From a phage, in the NCBI GenBank assembly GCA_011816565.1, contig GCA_011816565.1_3614.1: 64,000 nucleotides of DNA; one strand, 5' to 3'. The position numbers and the translations under genes are program-made. Below the pieces are notes generated by a model. It was not told the DNA's origin. It searched no databases and saw only the letters and a list, made by a program, of their open reading frames with translations. Within the stretch, counting starts at the first letter, position 1; every line of letters starts with the position of its first letter. Positions 9,520 through 64,000 of this stretch are shown here, one piece after another.

Positions 9520-11265
9520 ATGGCGCAAGACATGACAAGCTTTGAGCAGGCGGTAGATCAAGTAATTGTTGATTCTGAACGTTTGCACCTGATTGTCAAC
9601 GGTAACGCTGTGGATGAAGTTGTCGTAGAGGATGGGACCACCATCCCTACGGTACGAAAAGCCATGCTTGACACCCTTTATTTTAAAACGCCACCGATCC
9701 CTTGGGCGTATGGTGCATCCACAACAGTTTTTAACCAGCTGTATGAGTTTAAGGGGGACACAGGCCCTCAATGGTGGTACGCTCCCGCAGCATCAAAATC
9801 TAACCCGGTTAGAATGCCAGCAGACCCTTCACAATCTCCAAACTGGAGATTATATACCGACTCTGCAGTAATGGCAAAATACTACGCAAAACTTAACAGC
9901 CCTAGGTTCGAAGGTGACCCGCGAGTACCTACACCTCCAATGGACGATAAGTCAGAGTCCATAGCAAACACAGAGTTTGTTGTTGACTATGTTGATAGCA
10001 TATTTAAAGCCATGGAGGGGATGAAAGTTACTGTAGGGTCTTTGGTGGTAAAAGGTCTTACAGAACTTGCTAACACCATAGTTGGGGGCACACTTACCTT
10101 ACATGGGCCTGTTAATGGAGCAGACTCCACTGCACGCTTCAGGAACCTAATCCTCACGGCAAATACTTCTACACTTACTTTTGCGTGGAGCGATCCTAAG
10201 CATGCAGACTGGAGAAGCACAGAGCTGCAACCTCATGAAGTGTCCACCCGCAGGGTTATAGCTGACACTATAACTTCTGGGAAACCAGTGGCTAATAATA
10301 ACGATGTGCATTTTGATGGTCTAGGTAATAACTTTTTTGACTACGTGTACATTCGTGGTAATGCCATGAAGGCAGCAACCGAGCCAACATTGCAGGTCGA
10401 TGGGACTGCCAGGGTTAAGAACCTTGAGGTGACAGGCACCGTTACAGGGATAACCTACTCTGTCGATGGCACCATGATCTACCCTAGCTATATTGAAAGC
10501 ACGGGGGACGCATTAATAAATGGTGATTTAGAAGTTGGCGGATCTGTAGTTATTCGAGGTACAGCCTCTATCCAAAACATAGCTCTGAATACCCTAAGAG
10601 TCAATGAGCGTGCAACTTTTGAAGGGGAAGGGCTTACAGCCAACAAAGGTGTAATTACCGAGCTGACAACCACTACTTTAACTGCAACAACTGCAAACTC
10701 TGAAAACTGCAACGTTACCAGAAACTTGCAGGTAAATGGAGATGTTAGTTTAAACGCAGCAGGGACGGGCACCACCTACCTTCACAACCTTGAAATATCC
10801 GGCACAGTGACTGGGTGGCTGCCAGACTTCTCTAATGTCAACTTTGTTTGTAATGGCATTAACTCCAGTGGCAAGATAACCACCTCTCAAGAAATTGAGG
10901 CGGGTAAAACCATTACTGCCCCTACTTTCCACGCAGGAAAGGTAGATTTTGATTTAGAGGAGGTTGACGCGTCCAGTGGGACATGGACACCTAACGGGCA
11001 GGCCAGTATGTATGTTGTCCACGCGAAAGGGGATTTTACAATAGGACAATGGCCTGGTACATCAGCGGAAGATAAACCTTATCCATTCACTGCGGTTATC
11101 TATGTCATTCAGGATGCTGTAGGTCACAACGTGACTTTGCACGATAAGTATGCTATCCTGTCGGCAACGCCTGTTATTAATAACAAGGCTAATAGTGTTA
11201 CCTTGCTGCAATTAACATATTGTGGTGTTGGTGATATCGTAGACGTAGTAATTGCACAACGTTAA
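9520..11265 (+). CDS. tail fibre protein
   Basis: N-terminal region contains the widespread fibre anchor motif (SPRFEGDPRVPTPPMDDKSESIANTEFV) seen in T7 gp17-like fibres; beta-rich repetitive remainder. Confidence 0.6.
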   Translation: MAQDMTSFEQAVDQVIVDSERLHLIVNGNAVDEVVVEDGTTIPTVRKAMLDTLYFKTPPIPWAYGASTTVFNQLYEFKGDTGPQWWYAPAASKSNPVRMPADPSQSPNWRLYTDSAVMAKYYAKLNSPRFEGDPRVPTPPMDDKSESIANTEFVVDYVDSIFKAMEGMKVTVGSLVVKGLTELANTIVGGTLTLHGPVNGADSTARFRNLILTANTSTLTFAWSDPKHADWRSTELQPHEVSTRRVIADTITSGKPVANNNDVHFDGLGNNFFDYVYIRGNAMKAATEPTLQVDGTARVKNLEVTGTVTGITYSVDGTMIYPSYIESTGDALINGDLEVGGSVVIRGTASIQNIALNTLRVNERATFEGEGLTANKGVITELTTTTLTATTANSENCNVTRNLQVNGDVSLNAAGTGTTYLHNLEISGTVTGWLPDFSNVNFVCNGINSSGKITTSQEIEAGKTITAPTFHAGKVDFDLEEVDASSGTWTPNGQASMYVVHAKGDFTIGQWPGTSAEDKPYPFTAVIYVIQDAVGHNVTLHDKYAILSATPVINNKANSVTLLQLTYCGVGDIVDVVIAQR

Positions 11266-50895: not shown

Positions 50896-51224
50896 CAGAG
50901 ATCATCGTTTCAACTGCAGGGTATGTATTCCTGACAATCATTGCGCTGGCTATTCTGGTGGCGGTGTATGGATTTGTTATCCTGCCTATTCTTGAGACAT
51001 TTAGTTTGTGTCGGTGTTGGAGAAAAGCTTACGGACCACAACCGTGGAAAGACTGGTTCCATTTGGTGCGTATAGCGTTCTCTTATGCCTATGACCACTC
51101 TAGCAGTGCATGCGTAACCGGGTACCATGCCTACAACTGGAACTGGGAAGGGCTGGGGAGATGGACTGTTACAAAAACTATACCCTTACGGTTGTACAAA
51201 GGAAAGAACACACTGGGAGCCTGA
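50892..51224 (+). CDS. predicted membrane protein
   Basis: 110 aa with N-terminal hydrophobic segments (YVFLTIIALAILVAVYGFVILPIL). Confidence 0.45.
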   Translation: MTEIIVSTAGYVFLTIIALAILVAVYGFVILPILETFSLCRCWRKAYGPQPWKDWFHLVRIAFSYAYDHSSSACVTGYHAYNWNWEGLGRWTVTKTIPLRLYKGKNTLGA

Positions 51225-51253
51225 TATTTTAAGTTATCAGGTTGCCAGAGATC

Positions 51254-51712
51254 AGGAGGATTTCTAAAATGGATTTCCTCCTTTTGATATTTTACCTGCC
51301 AGGATATTTTAAAATCCTTAGAAAATCAGAAAATGGATCGAAAACTAAAATGGATTTTTCAGAGTAGGCGCGACAAGCTGAATCACTCATCCTACCGTTT
51401 GCACCATATTCCAGACCACCATTATAGATTTCCCGCACATGCTTACATCTCGCTACTAGAACTTCCTCCACTTACCCTTGACCTTTTATAGCAATAATCC
51501 AACCACTATCTTGAAGTTGCGGTGCAGCTTTCCAGGTACTCGATCTGTTTTTCGTTTCAAAGATTGAATTTTCTGAAAATTTTTCTCGATAAATTTCTCA
51601 GTACTCGATCTGTTTTTCGTTTTCTGAATCGGATTTTCTGGAAATCGCTCCGGCTCTTGGCCTAAAATTTTTGGGGACGAAATCGATTTTTCGTTTTCAG
51701 AAATGGATTTTT
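51254..51712. repeat. AT-rich iteron-like direct repeat region
   Basis: Three copies of (GTAC)TCGAT(CTG)TTTTTCGTTTTC at about 51536, 51601 and 51681, each with TTTTCTG(A/G)AAAT; at least four copies of (C/A)AAAATGGAT; hairpin AGGAGGA...TCCTCCT at 51254-51282. Confidence 0.55.
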
Positions 51713-51830
51713 AAAATTTCTATACGGGAATATTTTATGGGATACTGTTTTATAGGAAATTGTTACGGAGGGTAATTAGCGTGCTAATTAAATTTATTAA
51801 ATGCGAGGAGTTCTCATTTAGAATTTTGAA

Positions 51831-52034
51831 TGATAATCATTCTCGTTTGCAGAATAACGGGCAGGCCCGGTGATTGTCTCCCGGCCCCTACTGCCCCGGC
51901 TTGTTATTATAGTAACACACAGGACAAAGAAAGCAAGAAGTTTTTGCATAAATTTTTAGACGATAATGATAATCGTTCTCATTTCATGCAGCGCCCATCC
52001 CCGGTGGTTGTCTCCCCCGTCACCGGTGCCTGCC
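51831..52034. repeat. GC-rich structured repeat (two tandem units)
   Basis: Units at about 51831-51890 and 51967-52020 share TGATAATC(A/G)TTCTC...CCGGTG(A/G)TTGTCTCCC; 5' GGCAGGCCCGGTG and 3' CACCGGTGCCTGCC are complementary. A shorter inverted copy lies at 60983-61025. Confidence 0.5.
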
Positions 52035-52058
52035 GTCCTTTCGATAGGTATATTTTGC

Positions 52059-52198
52059 CACCTGGCGGGGCCGCTGTCAACACTTTTCAAAAAAAAATTC
52101 TAACCTGATGCGCTGACCGCTGCAACCTGGCGGGGCCAGCCTGGCAGGGCCTAACTGACCAGGTAGGAGAGAATGAAGGCTTGCAAACCTGGTGGGCC
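52059..52198. repeat. direct repeats of ACCTGGCGGGGCC
   Basis: CACCTGGCGGGGCC (52059), CAACCTGGCGGGGCC (52123), AACCTGGTGGGCC (52186); a fourth variant lies inside the next small ORF. Confidence 0.45.
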
Positions 52199-52239
52199 TA
52201 TGCTATAGGATAGGTAACAATTGAAGAGGAGGTACAAAA

Positions 52240-52416
52240 ATGGAAGGTAATATGATCCCCCTGGAAAATGTAGCTATTAATGACGCTGAGGCTATCGCCC
52301 TGGTTGAAAAGGCTATGGCGGGAGCGTTGGAACATAAAGAAGAGTACGAAAAAATGATGGTTAACCTGGCAGGGGCGGCGGCTGGAGAATTCCGCCCAAA
52401 AAATAATTTTAACTAA
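52240..52416 (+). CDS. hypothetical small protein (58 aa; not in ORF track)
   Basis: ATG 7 nt after GAAGAGGAGG; stop overlaps the next track ORF start. Confidence 0.35.
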   Translation: MEGNMIPLENVAINDAEAIALVEKAMAGALEHKEEYEKMMVNLAGAAAGEFRPKNNFN

Positions 52417-53250: not shown

Positions 53251-53655
53251 ATGAATAAGAACGTACGCCGCATCATGAACGAGTTGGCAAACGATGAAAA
53301 AATTATTGACATGCATTTGATCAACATTTGCCGCCGTTGTGTAACATATAACAACCGCGCCGCAAAAGCGCGTGAGATGAACGCAAAAGGCACCTTAAAG
53401 CCATTCCAGGTGGTGGTAAAGGCCATTAAAGATGTAACTAATACGGCAAACCAGGTACAGGGGAACACCAACGAGAGTACCAATATTGATCCGGCTTACA
53501 TCATGAAACGGATCCGGACCTGCAAGAACAAAGAGCAAGTGTATAATATCATAGACTGGTTGGATTCTATGGGCGATGTGGTTTACAATAGGTTTTCTGC
53601 AGCTATCGAGATCCAGCTTGACAGGTTGGACGGTAAAGTACTGAAAACTTACTAA
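53251..53655 (+). CDS. hypothetical protein
   Basis: 134 aa with leader hairpin and RBS. Confidence 0.5.
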   Translation: MNKNVRRIMNELANDEKIIDMHLINICRRCVTYNNRAAKAREMNAKGTLKPFQVVVKAIKDVTNTANQVQGNTNESTNIDPAYIMKRIRTCKNKEQVYNIIDWLDSMGDVVYNRFSAAIEIQLDRLDGKVLKTY

Positions 53656-53703
53656 GTTTATTTTTAGATGGCCTTGACTTCAGGGCCATCAATAAAGTAA
53701 ACT
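53656..53703. repeat. 48-bp intergenic hairpin repeat, copy 1
   Basis: GTTTATTTTTAGATGGCCTTGACTTCAGGGCCATCAATAAAGTAAACT; stem GATGGCC/GGCCATC with TTGAC in the loop. Confidence 0.55.
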
Positions 53704-53856
53704 AATCTCAACTAAGCGAAAAAATGGGGCTTTAAGATGAGCACTACACGCCAATACACAAAGGTAACTATTATCGTTTGCGTTGTCGGTTACATCCTGG
53801 CGCAAATGTTAATGAGTAGCGCTAACAGTTTTGCAAAATTTTTCTTAAATTTTTAA

Positions 53857-53935: not shown

Positions 53936-54277
53936 ATGACTACTATGACCGCCGCAGAAAAAGCTATGCAGATCGCCGCGCTGAAAAAACAGATCGCAGA
54001 CCTTGAGAACAAGATCGATAACTTTGAAATCGACGAGGACAAGTACGACGAAAACTATGATGAATGGTTAGACGAGATCTACGGCGAAATTATGATCGGA
54101 AACATTTCTTTTCTTCCGTCGCGTATCCTCAAGGAGCTAGATCCTATCGCTTACCGCTGCGGATTTAGCGACTACATCGACAGCCTGGATATTGAGGAAG
54201 ATGAAGAATACCAGGAACTACAGACAGAGTTAGAAGAAGCAAAAGAAGAGCTTGCGGAGCTGGAAGAAAACGAGTAA
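53936..54277 (+). CDS. highly acidic small protein
   Basis: 113 aa, very rich in D/E (DNFEIDEDKYDENYDEWLDEIYGE...LDIEEDEEYQELQTELEEAKEELAELEENE), coiled-coil-like N-terminus. Confidence 0.5.
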   Translation: MTTMTAAEKAMQIAALKKQIADLENKIDNFEIDEDKYDENYDEWLDEIYGEIMIGNISFLPSRILKELDPIAYRCGFSDYIDSLDIEEDEEYQELQTELEEAKEELAELEENE

Positions 54278-54278
54278 G

Positions 54279-54325
54279 ATTATTTTTAGATGGCCTTGAC
54301 TCCAGGGCCATCAATAAAGTAAACT
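54279..54325. repeat. 48-bp intergenic hairpin repeat, copy 2
   Basis: TTATTTTTAGATGGCCTTGACTCCAGGGCCATCAATAAAGTAAACT directly after the stop at 54277. Confidence 0.55.
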
Positions 54326-54366
54326 TTATACTGTTAACACTGAACTAATTCAGAGGAGTTAAAACC

Positions 54367-54612
54367 ATGGCAGCACTAATCACCAAATATTATGCCCCTA
54401 CCAACACCAAAAGCGCCCGTATCATGGTAAAAGGTTTCGGACGTAAAAAGGTTTACACCTGGGATTATGCCTTAGACACGGAAGACAACTACACCAACGC
54501 AATGACCGATTTTATTAATGATCTGAACACGCGGATCTTGACAAATTATAAAATTACCGATATTGCCTATATAGGGGAAGGCGGGATCTGTTTTGTCGGT
54601 ATCGTCAAATAA
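54367..54612 (+). CDS. hypothetical small protein
   Basis: 81 aa with RBS (GGAG); followed by a degenerate copy of the hairpin repeat (54613-54660). Confidence 0.45.
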   Translation: MAALITKYYAPTNTKSARIMVKGFGRKKVYTWDYALDTEDNYTNAMTDFINDLNTRILTNYKITDIAYIGEGGICFVGIVK

Positions 54613-54687
54613 GCTGTTTTTTCGGTGGTCCTGGTAGCAGGGCCATCTATAAAGATAGTTTATCAACACAATGAAAGGAGAAAGTAC

Positions 54688-57818: not shown

Positions 57819-58019
57819 ATGAGCAACAATATCCGCGTTATTAACTTCAAAAAAGAAGAAAAAATTGCCGTGCTGATTGACGGTCAAGAAATCTTCAAGG
57901 GCTATTATGAAGATCATCAAACTGCGATTAGTATCACTCGCGTGATCGGTTACCATAATTTCTACCCCCAAGGCGCTGAGGCAGCAGTTAAACGAATCAA
58001 AGAGATTGTAGGCCTGTAA
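57819..58019 (+). CDS. hypothetical small protein
   Basis: 66 aa; TTGCAA...ATATGGATAATAA promoter-like sequence and RBS (AAAGGAGAAAC) upstream. Confidence 0.45.
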   Translation: MSNNIRVINFKKEEKIAVLIDGQEIFKGYYEDHQTAISITRVIGYHNFYPQGAEAAVKRIKEIVGL

Positions 58020-58068
58020 ATTTATTTTTAGATGGCCTTGACGCCAGGGCCATCAGTAAAGTAAATTT
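58019..58068. repeat. 48-bp intergenic hairpin repeat, copy 3
   Basis: TTTATTTTTAGATGGCCTTGACGCCAGGGCCATCAGTAAAGTAAATT directly after the stop at 58019. Confidence 0.55.
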
Positions 58069-58111
58069 TAATCGTGGTAAAATAACACGCAGTTAACAAG
58101 GAGTGATAAAC

Positions 58112-60730: not shown

Positions 60731-60922
60731 ATGAATATCGAACAAGTCAGAAAGGTATTGGCGGTACTGCGTTATCATAATCATAGAAAGGTCATAGACG
60801 ATCCTGATTATGTCGATTCAAGCCTGGAAGGGGATACACTACAAGCCATAAGCAACATGCAAGAATTGCTAAAGCGCATGACAGAGAAAAACCGACCGGA
60901 CTACATAGGCGAAAAAATATAA
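60731..60922 (+). CDS. hypothetical small protein
   Basis: 63 aa; followed by terminator. Confidence 0.4.
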   Translation: MNIEQVRKVLAVLRYHNHRKVIDDPDYVDSSLEGDTLQAISNMQELLKRMTEKNRPDYIGEKI

Positions 60923-60936
60923 TATTTATAAACTAC

Positions 60937-60968
60937 AAAACAGGGCTTGCAATGGTCCTGTTTTTTGT
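60937..60968 (+). terminator. rho-independent terminator
   Basis: AAAACAGGGC-TTGCAATG-GTCCTGTTTT hairpin followed by a T-run. Confidence 0.5.
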
Positions 60969-60982
60969 TATACTTGTTTCAC

Positions 60983-61025
60983 GGCAGGCACCTGGCGACG
61001 GGGGGAGACAATCACCGGGCCTGCC
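60983..61025. repeat. GC-rich element, inverted copy
   Basis: GGCAGGCACCTGGCGACGGGGGGAGACAATCACCGGGCCTGCC; its reverse complement joins the 5' part of the 51860 unit and the 3' part of the 52001 unit. Confidence 0.5.
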
Positions 61026-61050
61026 TGTCATATAAGAACTATAAAAACCG

Positions 61051-61079
61051 TTGACATCTGCCATGGGGTGGGGTAACAT
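61051..61079 (+). promoter_or_regulatory. sigma70-like promoter (TTGACA-N17-TAACAT)
   Basis: Upstream of 61134. Confidence 0.4.
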
Positions 61080-61133: not shown

Positions 61134-61406
61134 GTGTCAAGCTGGATTAATCAAGAAGTAGAATCACGTTTTAATGCTATCTGGGATCTCATCGAAAAAG
61201 AGGACGGAACATCAAGCCCCTACCTCAACAATTTGGAATTCCATTTTGTGGAAGCGATGAACGCAGAACATGATCACGAAGGTGGCGCGGATGATTTCGC
61301 TAAAGGTTATGGCTTTAACAATGCCAACGAAATGATCGAGGCGGTCGTACTCCAGGCTGAGGAAGATTATCAATTAAAAACGCTTGAATTCTGCCGCCAT
61401 AAGTAA
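61134..61406 (+). CDS. hypothetical acidic protein
   Basis: GTG start after AGAGAGGAAAACAC; 90 aa. Confidence 0.45.
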   Translation: MSSWINQEVESRFNAIWDLIEKEDGTSSPYLNNLEFHFVEAMNAEHDHEGGADDFAKGYGFNNANEMIEAVVLQAEEDYQLKTLEFCRHK

Positions 61407-62295: not shown

Positions 62296-62313
62296 TTTTT
62301 AACTGAATTATCA

Positions 62314-62338
62314 AGGGGCCTTAGCCCCTTTCTTTTTG
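62314..62338 (+). terminator. rho-independent terminator
   Basis: AGGGGC-CTTA-GCCCCT hairpin followed by TTCTTTTTG. Confidence 0.6.
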
Positions 62339-62947
62339 TCTGCTCTTCCCCCTACCATAAACGGCCCTACCTGACAAGTGGAATAATTGACGAGCCATCA
62401 ATCCCGCACACTGTACAAATATACATGTAAAATAGTTATTGCATAACCTTTCATTGTGTGGTAGCAGGGCTATTTTTACCCGTTTTCCCTTCCAAAATTG
62501 CACGTAATGCCGCTATTGCACAAATTTTAACCTGATGCAGATCTTCAATATCTTGTCAACAAGTAAAAATTCTTATAAGTCATACACTTACACAAACTAA
62601 AAAGCGTGTTCTACGCGAAAAATCGAGTATAACTATAGCCGCCAGATCTCAGAATTCACGTACGCACGCCATTCTATAGCCTGCAAAGTATTTATTCCAA
62701 CCACAGAATAACGGAATAGCCAATACCTGCATAAAATAATTATTCGTGTAAACTGCATAACATAAATCAGCTCAGGTGTCAACATTTTTCGTAAACAGTC
62801 CGAAATTATCACGATGAGTTATCATAAACAGAGAAATCTTTAGTCGTCTAATGTTTACTGTACATTACTATACTGACTGGAATCATTAGATGACTAAGAG
62901 AAAGATAAGAAATAATTAATAATGTGATTATTTTACCTGTAACAATA

Positions 62948-63172
62948 AGGCAACTATGCAAACGAATGGCATGGCGCGACGGAGTCGCGACATAATATAA
63001 AAGCAGTAACCATCACCCCCGTGATAGTTTGTCTGCAAACTATTAATCAGATCATAGTTGCCTTGTATTTAGTTAATCATGACATAACAAGCAAGGCAAC
63101 TATAGATCTGCTAATAGTTGCCCTGCTTTTATATTATGTCATAGGAACGCCCGAAGGGGTGACCTAGTCACC
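62948..63172. repeat. palindrome/inverted-repeat cluster in AT-rich non-coding region
   Basis: ATAGTTTG-TCTG-CAAACTAT palindrome (63024-63043); AAGGCAACTAT/ATAGTTGCC in both orientations (62948, 63054, 63093, 63112); inverted pair CGCGACATAATATAAAAGCAG (62986) / CTGCTTTTATATTATGTC (63123); GGTGACCTAGTCACC palindrome (63158); ATGCAAACGAATGGCATGGC direct repeat (62956, 63230). Confidence 0.55.
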
Positions 63173-64000
63173 TGGCATAGCCAGCGAAAGATTATTAACT
63201 TGTCGATTGTTATCTTGTTAATTGTTTTCATGCAAACGAATGGCATGGCTTATCATCTATGCGTGAACAGTGAGGCATGCAATAGTAACAATTGTTATTG
63301 TATCCAGTGTGTTGAGTATGCCCAGTGTGTCACTATTATGTCATATTATGTCACAGTATGTCAGACAAGTTTTTCTCCTCTTTGTCAAGTGCTGCATGAA
63401 AAATTTACAAGCTTGTATGGTAGCATTTTTGCGGCCCTGTTTACATTCAGTAGTGTATGTATAATCCTTGTTGTGTGGGCGTTTAGACGTCTAGACGGTT
63501 GGAAGTCCACAGGTCAATATCTAATCTATCGGCTGCTAACTATATCCCACACAAATAGTAAGAAATATGATTGTTATATGCGTAAACTGTAACTCATGTT
63601 ATCAATCCCTGTATGGATCGCCAGTGGTGCGCATAATGGGTATTATGTTAAATTGCCAGTAATGATAACTATTCTCACAATGATAGGTATTCTCATTCAC
63701 TCCCACAAGATAGGTTGCAAATGTTGTGCCACTGTGTGAACGGCCTCACCTATTAATTTGCCTCACTGCCTCGATATTTGAGAATTGTTATAAGAATGAG
63801 AAGTATTCCCATTTCGTCCGCCTGGCAGCACTCCAGTCGCTACCGGCTCCTGACAGGGAGGCACTCCTGTTGGTCAGGTCAAAATCGGGGTAGAACTGGG
63901 CCTGTTCAGATATTTCTGGCTGACGCTTCAGGTCTGTGTGGGAAAAGACAACCTCCCCGACGGGGCAGGGGGGTGTCTGCTGGAAAATTGCAGGTCAATT

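Follow-up and report, generated by a model that had tools for sequence, protein, structure and literature searches.

Predicted promoter-leader cassettes facing putative Fur operators in an untranslated region of an rV5-like coliphage

A GC-rich element arranged as two tandem units at positions 51831-52034 of a 64,000-nucleotide stretch of phage DNA (contig GCA_011816565.1_3614.1; the whole stretch is referred to as the window) raises the question of what such repeats might do in an AT-rich region between genes, and whether, as suggested in a preliminary description of this DNA, they represent a structured RNA family, recombination or boundary sites, or remnants of a miniature inverted-repeat element. 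Region 51400-52300 of the window is 97-99% identical to rV5-like phages (e.g., JeffSchatz, bov10K2, rV5_ev isolates and several records that carry the label Campylobacter phage; 122 records match), and the window phage is an rV5-like virulent coliphage (Vequintavirus) with a genome of approx. 137 kb. The reading that we favor, with a rough probability of 0.42, is that each unit would be a composite transcription-control cassette resembling the PeSLs of T4-type phages, and that the two tandem cassettes face Fur operators, so that untranslated transcription from them would be gated by iron.

The core of the element, CCGGTG(A/G)TTGTCTCCC (CCGGTGRTTGTCTCCC), occurs exactly three times in the window, i.e., at 51867-51882 and 52001-52016 on the plus strand (units 1 and 2) and at 61003-61018 on the minus strand (copy 3), and the sequence TGATAATCRTTCTC was found at exactly 51831 and 51967; these exact matches confirm two tandem units that each combine an AT-rich half with a CCGGTG core. 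The compact inverted version described at 60983-61025 is also real, as it contains the third core and forms with unit 1 the longest inverted repeat between 51 and 64 kb (51854-51882 versus 61003-61031; 29 nt, 93%). All three copies are kept in 10-11 diverse rV5-like genomes. Of the four copies originally proposed, however, only these three stand. The supposed fourth, an inverted motif at 63943-63973, has only approx. 8 nt (GGTTGTCT) in common with the core, and in phage rV5 the bases that it shares with the core are replaced (AAAAGCCGACCCCTCCGGCGGCGGGGAGGGGG); moreover, the matches of a profile hidden Markov model of 26 family members in the window were the three core sites alone, with none at 63943. 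Positions 63943-63973 form an independent GC hairpin, terminator-like on the minus strand, that is not a member of the family.

The outer ends of the tandem units, GGCAGGCCCGGTG and CACCGGTGCCTGCC, are complementary as described, but the long stem that they were thought to close is absent from the minimum free energy fold of 51820-52050. Their complementarity arises because copy 3, read on the strand with GGGAGACAA (the promoter strand, see below), joins a left half of the unit 2 type (GGCAGGCACC.GG.GACGGGG) to a right half of the unit 1 type (UCACCGGGCCUGCC). In phage MiataMamis, copy 3 carries a unit 2 interior, i.e., it has undergone gene conversion to the unit 2 type, and a single unit is present in the distant relatives L064 and L149 and in every other genus. 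It therefore looks as though duplication in the rV5 lineage gave rise to the tandem pair and to the dispersed copy, and as though the copies are still exchanging sequence. Among the functions first proposed, that of recombination or boundary sites survives in part, as a regulatory or boundary reading with recombination between copies best fits the adjoining conserved promoters and the MiataMamis conversion; copy 3 is located between a terminator and the next promoter. A remnant of a miniature inverted-repeat element, on the other hand, is not supported: the phage has only three copies, and the core gave zero matches in 5,426 complete E. coli genomes, which removes both this idea and that of a host repeat (e.g., a mobile repeat similar to repetitive extragenic palindromic sequences). 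The sole match in a plasmid database was a 137.5-kb record, as long as an rV5-like phage genome, with three matching places. Exact 16-mer scans of viral and metagenome contigs yielded mostly chance matches; filtering left contigs L064, L077, L149, L201, L257, L179 and L226.

The AT-rich half of each tandem unit, TGATAATC(A/G)TTCTC, which the preliminary description overlooked as such, is by its match to the consensus a near-consensus Fur box. Fur box 1 (TTGAATGATAATCATTCTC, 51826-51845) agrees with the 19-bp Fur consensus at 15 of 19 positions (51826-51844) and contains the 7-1-7 core TGATAATCATTCTCG (51831-51845), and Fur box 2 (GATAATGATAATCGTTCTC, 51962-51981) agrees at 17 of 19 positions (51962-51980), a match of which 0.03 are expected by chance. 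A degenerate Fur-like box 0 (TGCGAGGAGTTCTCA, 51802-51816), with 4 mismatches to the 7-1-7 pattern and weak alone, aligns positionally with a perfect palindrome, TGAGAAGAGTTCTCA, in phage anhysbys. Sites matching the 7-1-7 pattern with at most 2 mismatches numbered 4 as compared to 0.37 expected (none of 100 shuffles reached 4), and the form TGAKAATNATTCTCA had 12 matches as compared to 1.47 expected. When the half-site was permuted to give composition-matched palindromes, the real Fur half-site ranked first among 140. Four of the 12 matches constitute a second cluster (63663-63811) with boxes starting at 63663, 63681, 63779 and 63797 (TGATAACTATTCTCA, TGATAGGTATTCTCA, TGAGAATTGTTATAA and TGAGAAGTATTCCCA), which is located in a large non-coding region between convergent gene blocks and is kept in rV5 and JeffSchatz. 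The boxes cluster as Fur operators do, in two pairs with starts 18 bp apart in this second cluster and as 3-4 consecutive boxes in anhysbys and Certrevirus. Across 11 diverse rV5-like genomes, box 1 was 100% and box 2 95% invariant, and box 1 is also conserved in other genera. These boxes are thus predicted Fur operators, at which we infer binding of Fur. Searches of the open-access literature returned no report of Fur boxes or of the leader motif in rV5-like or T5-like phages, and the rV5 genome paper gives sigma-70 promoters and a non-coding box and not the cassette or Fur elements; the pairing of the cassettes with Fur operators is the previously unrecognized part of the finding.

When the cores are read on the strand GGGAGACAAUCACC (minus for units 1 and 2, plus for copy 3), every one of them is located 10-30 nt downstream of a predicted sigma-70 promoter with an extended -10 element, and the leader on that strand would read 5'-(A/C)GGGG(G)AGACAA(U/C)CACCGGG-3'. 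For unit 1 (leader 51860-51900, minus strand, with the putative transcript ...GCCGGGAGACAAUCACCGGGCCUGCCCG) the predicted leftward promoter is TTGCTT, 16 nt, TGtTACTAT (51909-51936, minus strand); it was read by eye and was not reported by a consensus scan, and its TGn and hexamers are kept in the 11 rV5-like genomes (TGtTACTAT or TGaTACTAT). For unit 2 (leader 51998-52034, minus strand, 97% invariant in the same genomes) the scan gave TTGACA, 17 nt, TGgCAAAAT (52052-52080, minus strand; 10/12 with TG), with an invariant -35 in relatives and a -10 that differs only at its third position (CAAAAT, CACAAT, CATAAT). Judged from the hexamers, variation of this kind, like the TGt/TGa exchange in unit 1, is what a working -10 tolerates. 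Copy 3 has a rightward promoter, TTGCAA, 16 nt, TGtTATACT (60947-60974, plus strand; 9/12 with TG), that is kept in relatives, and its leader hairpin (GGCAGGCACCUGGCGACGGGGGGAGACAAUCACCGGGCCUGCC, 60983-61025, plus strand) starts approx. 3 nt past the predicted start site. This promoter lies inside an intrinsic terminator (60937-60964, plus strand) that follows the gene ending at 60922 and, with an A-run upstream and a T-run downstream, looks bidirectional. The next promoter, TTGACA, 17 nt, TAACAT (61051-61079, plus strand), belongs to the gene that starts at 61134 and is known from phage rV5 as P168 (rV5 supplementary Table S4). Units 1 to 3 themselves were not called as intrinsic terminators on either strand, and their hairpins have no U-run after them. 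Counted from the better, leftward promoters, the Fur boxes are located at about +45 to +70; box 1 also overlaps a weak candidate rightward promoter (TTGAAT, 18 nt, CAGAAT) with a -10 that some genera have not kept.

As every core follows a predicted extended -10 promoter, we regard the GC-rich core as a conserved promoter-proximal leader motif, whose primary sequence is probably what a protein, or the machinery of transcription or translation, recognizes. Comparisons by eye with the 3' end of 16S rRNA, the RfaH ops element, boxA/nut and CsrA sites, the elemental pause consensus, T7 primase sites and ToxI repeats revealed likenesses that were too weak to retain.

The same arrangement extends beyond the genus. 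Distant blastn matches to window positions 51826-51884 (box 1 and core) were 80-88% identical in other genera, and we read the loci of Salmonella phage PVP-SE1, 4MG, Klebsiella Mydovirus, Pectobacterium phage CB7, Enterobacter phage F1M1E, Cronobacter phage PBES02, Serratia phage Kashira, Erwinia phage Hena1, TH18 and the Stephanstirmvirinae anhysbys and Tr1. All of these show a common order of elements, i.e., AT-rich direct repeats (CTCGATC, CGAAAAAATTTTT), 1-4 Fur-like palindromes, TTTGCAGAAT, GCA, a few variable bases, CGGTG(A/T)TTGTCTC and then the opposed promoter. One to four Fur-like boxes occupy the same position in Seunavirus, Mydovirus, Certrevirus, Kashira, Hena1, TH18, anhysbys (four boxes) and Tr1, and Aeromonas phage 2L372X also has Fur-like boxes at the equivalent position. 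Extended -10 elements persist in relatives and in other genera (TGcTATTAT, TGtTATTCT, TATATT). Overall, the layout of promoter, leader and Fur box is kept across Vequintavirinae genera and Stephanstirmvirinae. In the window, the direct repeats to the left of the Fur boxes are three copies of approx. 52-65 nt (ACTCGATCTGTTTTTCGTTT...ATTTTCTG, with GATC and A/T tracts; 51529-51719); they look like iterons, or like a region of DNA unwinding or bending, and CTCGATC or CGAAAAAATTTTT repeats occur at the equivalent position in PVP-SE1, Klebsiella Mydovirus, Certrevirus, 4MG and TH18. The other genera also carry, to the right of the cassette and after a duplicated TCTTTACA, a strongly conserved non-coding stretch, CTACCGGCGATCCACCTTCC...GTTAGCCCCGCCTTTTCGCCGTGGGGTGGCG (L002 1655-1730, L003 1690-1760, L004 1690-1760 and L381-L385 at approx. 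745-830), which is absent from the rV5-like window and had no Rfam match in L002 or L385.

Five freshwater contigs (L257, L179, L226, L185 and L165), in which no protein in common with the window could be detected, contain 3-6 copies of the cassette each, co-directional with genes. Here the cassette combines a bidirectional terminator with TGnTATAAT and with the leader ...CCUGA(G/A)AACGGGGGAGACAA(A/U)CACCGGG... Copy 3 has the same layout, with its terminator, promoter and leader followed by P168 and the gene at 61134, and we therefore interpret units 1 and 2 as two such cassettes in tandem that point leftward, i.e., against the flanking genes and towards the Fur boxes and AT-rich repeats. On the broader hypothesis set out below, the 20-nt motif that rV5-like phages share with unrelated freshwater phages would probably be read by a conserved host machine.

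If each unit were instead a conserved hairpin that is functional in itself, as the proposal of a structured noncoding RNA family holds, then folding should exceed that of shuffled sequence and base pairs should be maintained by compensatory changes. Copy 3 does fold stably (-23.8 kcal/mol, z -2.2, on the plus strand and -25.6 kcal/mol, z -3.6, on the minus strand), a consensus hairpin of -21 kcal/mol is retained in 8 rV5-like sequences, and small GC stems plus an outer stem can be drawn by eye around the core in most lineages. However, the number of compensatory changes in the copy 3 hairpin was 0, and units 1 and 2 folded no better than shuffled sequences (z -0.7 and -1.3 on the plus strand). 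RNAalifold, applied to 11 lineages, predicted only four weak pairs, all on the same strand, and no consensus across genera. Exchanging the downstream flanks among 14 family members had little effect (native -16.6 versus swapped -16.1 kcal/mol; permutation P = 0.21), and all four possible combinations of two variable dinucleotides were seen in unit 1. Rfam gave no window matches at the gathering score and relaxed scans gave noise alone. The covariation, RNAalifold and flank-swap results thus suggest that a core of 13-20 nt is conserved as sequence and that its GC-rich flanks pair promiscuously, and we consider a structured RNA family very improbable.

The units were described as non-coding, and this was borne out even though a 92-aa open reading frame (ORF) is annotated across them (51830-52108, plus strand; rV5 ORF198, bas55_0100, phrog_14993). 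The annotation exists in rV5 and JeffSchatz, and phrog_14993 matches over its full length, this PHROG having been built from such annotations; several records have no annotation over these positions. A 1-nt insertion shifts the frame in Alma, early stop codons cut it short in MiataMamis and metagenome contig L201, and the distant relative L064 has lost it. The 39 columns of the frame that vary are spread over the codon positions as 10/15/14, with no third-position bias, and the start codon lies inside an AT-rich Fur box and has no Shine-Dalgarno sequence. The ORF198 product is not among the features discussed in the rV5 proteome text that we read. As the frame is not kept and third-position bias is absent, we regard the region as non-coding and the ORF as probably spurious; that the units belong to a real gene for a 92-aa protein is hardly credible. 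A tRNA or tmRNA was also rejected, as ARAGORN found none in the window or in the loci of three relatives. In the Klebsiella Mydovirus record OY978796.1 (L004), a tRNA-Met and a tRNA-Ile are annotated over the Fur boxes and cassette (1511-1664); as ARAGORN finds neither, both are probably mis-annotations.

The tandem units are located in an approx. 1-kb gap (51224-52240) between plus-strand genes, with the replication module upstream and a long array of small genes, function unknown, downstream. Our proposal for this conserved untranslated region is that units 1 and 2 would fire leftward, against the flanking genes, each with a near-consensus Fur operator some 45-70 nt downstream of its predicted start. 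Fe(II)-Fur bound to the boxes would gate this untranslated transcription, e.g., as a roadblock to the leftward promoters, and may also repress the weaker rightward promoter over box 1, which would create a face-to-face promoter switch. The activity of the control region, which includes the iteron-like AT-rich repeats to the left and the array of small early genes to the right, would then depend on the iron status of the host. Copy 3 would be the same cassette without Fur boxes, set in gene direction between terminator and P168, with a leader that can form a 5'-terminal hairpin.

Several points weigh against this proposal. Promoter activity and direction are predictions; the unit 1 promoter has a weak -35 in addition to having been recognized only by eye. 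A position of +45 to +70 is not the classical one for repression, and E. coli Fur sites downstream of promoters repressed weakly (PMC2189734), even though clusters of Fur sites, including sites between promoter and gene start, have been described in the same study. In the rightward -10 over box 1, the important A of position 2 is replaced in Klebsiella phages (CTGAAT) and in CB7 (CGGAAT), and the candidate -10 of unit 2, GATAAT, is GATAAC in most relatives. A protein other than Fur could occupy the boxes, or they could function as AU-rich RNA hairpins in the leftward transcript. Finally, the leader motif has no assigned reader, and the leftward transcripts have no obvious product or terminator.

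Three other explanations accept the promoters or boxes and assign them different roles. If the boxes repressed the rightward promoters that they overlap, the product would be a short, iron-responsive plus-strand small RNA with GGUGAUUGUCUCCC, whose C/U-rich core, similar to an anti-Shine-Dalgarno sequence, could pair in trans with the copy 3 leader or in cis with leftward transcripts. In favor of this are the TTG of box 1, where the sequence is closer to a -35 consensus than to that of Fur and which is kept in most genera, and the complementarity of unit 1 and copy 3; furthermore, in L257 a core in plus orientation is followed by a terminator approx. 60 nt on, and a C-to-U change in the unit 2 stem of Alma and nom retains a G-U pair on the plus strand alone. 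We nevertheless consider a Fur-repressed small RNA fairly unlikely, as the strongest promoter signals are on the opposite strand, the rightward -10 is variable (CTGAAT, CGGAAT, CTAAAT; GATAAC in unit 2), and units 1 and 2 combine the lack of a plus-strand terminator with plus-strand folds equal to shuffled ones. The variable dinucleotide of unit 1 and copy 3 agrees in 6 of 10 genomes as compared to approx. 3.6 expected, which was unconvincing and was rejected as evidence for pairing in trans.

Transcription itself could be the function if tandem promoters opened or primed the AT-rich iteron region as a T7-type transcription-activated origin, with Fur boxes coupling initiation to iron. The primary origin of T7 comprises two promoters and an AT-rich stretch, and the analogy is attractive because the tandem leftward promoters here lead into AT-rich direct repeats that contain GATC and A/T tracts, in a phage that encodes a T7-like DNA polymerase and a gp4-like primase/helicase (approx. 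8-13 kb upstream of the units); the approx. 1-kb non-coding architecture is, moreover, kept in several genera. GC skew, however, gave no origin signal at the locus and tracks transcription direction alone (the rV5 genome paper likewise obtained no origin signal from GC skew), and the promoter-leader cassette also precedes ordinary genes, both as copy 3 and in freshwater contigs, all of which makes an origin unlikely. Alternatively, the boxes could act as a sponge that, at high genome copy number, titrates Fur and derepresses host iron uptake, e.g., for the phage ribonucleotide reductase. Multicopy Fur boxes derepress the Fur regulon in titration assays, at least 7 boxes are present in the two clusters of the window, and many viral contigs and T5-like phages carry near-perfect boxes in tandem arrays. 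The sites per genome are nevertheless few relative to Fur abundance until late infection, and in every lineage the position of the last box is tightly tied to the cassette, which points to a role in cis; a sponge is therefore distinctly unlikely. Iron-gated cassettes acting in cis remain the reading that we prefer.

The surroundings of the locus contain further repeats. The neighboring genes all belong to PHROGs of unknown function, with no notable Pfam match, and offer no functional clue. To the right of unit 2, several copies of (A)CCTGGCGGGGCC, which includes the Dcm site CCWGG, are located at 52059-52200; one of them lies inside the spacer of the unit 2 promoter, the promoters of relatives have similar GC-rich CCWGG spacers, and the stretch contains indels in Alma and ECP26. 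Within the small-gene array, a 55-nt repeat family, TTTTTAGATGGCCTTGAC..CAGGGCCATCAATAAAGTAAAC, is found at 53652-53706, 54274-54328, 54609-54663 and 58016-58070; as its hairpin loop bears a TTGAC element resembling a -35, these repeats may be another type of PeSL-like cassette that combines terminator and promoter. At the right end of the window, 62300-64000 and its continuation past the window end make up approx. 2.5 kb of repeat-rich sequence without convincing genes, corresponding to the 'non-coding' box of the rV5 paper. It contains a perfect 18-nt inverted repeat (62989-63006 and 63123-63140), direct repeats (63038-63071 and 63098-63131), a run of TATGTCA repeats (63335-63365) and a palindrome (63474-63511), and could be a packaging, terminus or origin region. 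GenBank record MT884008.2 (bov10K2) begins at window position 63822, adjoining the Fur-like boxes of the second cluster. Approximately 16 records titled 'Campylobacter phage' (MG0656xx) are 96-100% identical to this rV5-like sequence of an E. coli phage; their host label looks doubtful.

Fur-type arrays were also observed outside the rV5-like group. In phage T5 (NC_005859.1), positions 9554-9713, within the annotated injection stop signal, contain an array of Fur-like boxes with 8 matches on both strands, as compared to 0.04 in shuffled sequences, including a perfect 7-1-7 palindrome (TGAGAATCATTATCA) at 9658. A detailed preprint on the T5 injection-stop region discusses DnaA boxes and does not mention Fur. 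One Fur-type array from a viral contig has matches in 512 T5-like records, where it is located towards the inner end of the terminal repeat. The palindrome AATGAKAATNATTCTCATTT occurs in at least 120 viral contigs, often in tandem arrays, and among the matches listed, IMG/VR loci (L262-L379) from many environments carry near-perfect AATGAGAATCATTCTCATT palindromes in tandem arrays of 3-6 with regular spacers (e.g., L368 1810-1900, L276 4850-5050, L265 3358-3470 and L356 1976-2060). It is tempting to hypothesize that large virulent phages of Enterobacteria (rV5-like, phAPEC8-like and T5-like) and many uncultured phages sense iron or sequester Fur through conserved operator arrays in untranslated control regions, with the operators of rV5-like phages wired to the cassette; we regard so broad a generalization as tentative and somewhat doubtful.

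That Fur controls iron genes of bacteria, as well as a few cargo genes of prophages, is textbook knowledge; the usual view of virulent phages does not include it. The link between Fur operator and cassette spans two myovirus subfamilies and, if true, would make iron-dependent control of the lytic cycle directly testable; if the T5 array is functional, its location inside the injection-stop region would point to a possible part of Fur in two-step DNA entry. As rV5-like phages are candidates for therapy with a broad host range, such control would matter when they are applied in niches of the host that are poor in iron, e.g., the gut. The analysis also corrects spurious annotations at this locus (ORF198, tRNA-Met) and defines a short leader motif that is common to unrelated phages.

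Among known systems, the boxes resemble enterobacterial Fur boxes in their agreement with the 19-bp GATAATGATAATCATTATC and 7-1-7 TGATAATnATTATCA consensus sequences, in their occurrence as clusters or arrays and in adjoining sigma-70 promoters. They differ in that they belong to a strictly virulent phage and to a long untranslated region rather than preceding an iron-uptake or toxin gene, in being coupled to a conserved GC-rich leader, and in lying mostly downstream of the best-predicted promoter. Phage-borne loci regulated by Fur include stx1. The sole phage example of Fur control retrieved from the literature was sitABCD (sit) of lambda-like prophages (PMC6969025). With the injection-stop region (iss) of T5 the locus shares a large conserved untranslated region in a big virulent coliphage, direct repeats and palindromes, and an array of Fur boxes; the T5 region, however, belongs to a terminal repeat and is linked to the entry of DNA in two steps, for which rV5-like phages have no known counterpart, and the GC-rich leader motif was absent from the T5 stretch that we read. 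In coliphage 186, the opposed promoters pR and pL start a few tens of bp apart and a repressor acts on one of them. Two opposed promoters, likewise with starts some tens of bp apart and with a repressor on one, would also exist here, although the rightward promoter is weakly supported and the regulator would be a metal sensor of the host rather than a phage repressor. The closest described analogue is the PeSL of T4-type phages, an intergenic cassette of a terminator stem-loop and a sigma-70-like early promoter that serves as a recombination substrate (PMC2839356, PMC4122927). The elements described here differ from PeSLs in sequence and lineage (Vequintavirus rather than T4-type), in having three copies rather than many, in the 20-nt conserved transcribed motif, with which PeSLs have not been described, and in that units 1 and 2 lack the terminator and are opposed to Fur boxes. 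Both, however, are repeated intergenic cassettes among small early genes of unknown function, both recombine between copies, and the order of terminator and then promoter that defines a PeSL is also that of copy 3 and of the freshwater copies.

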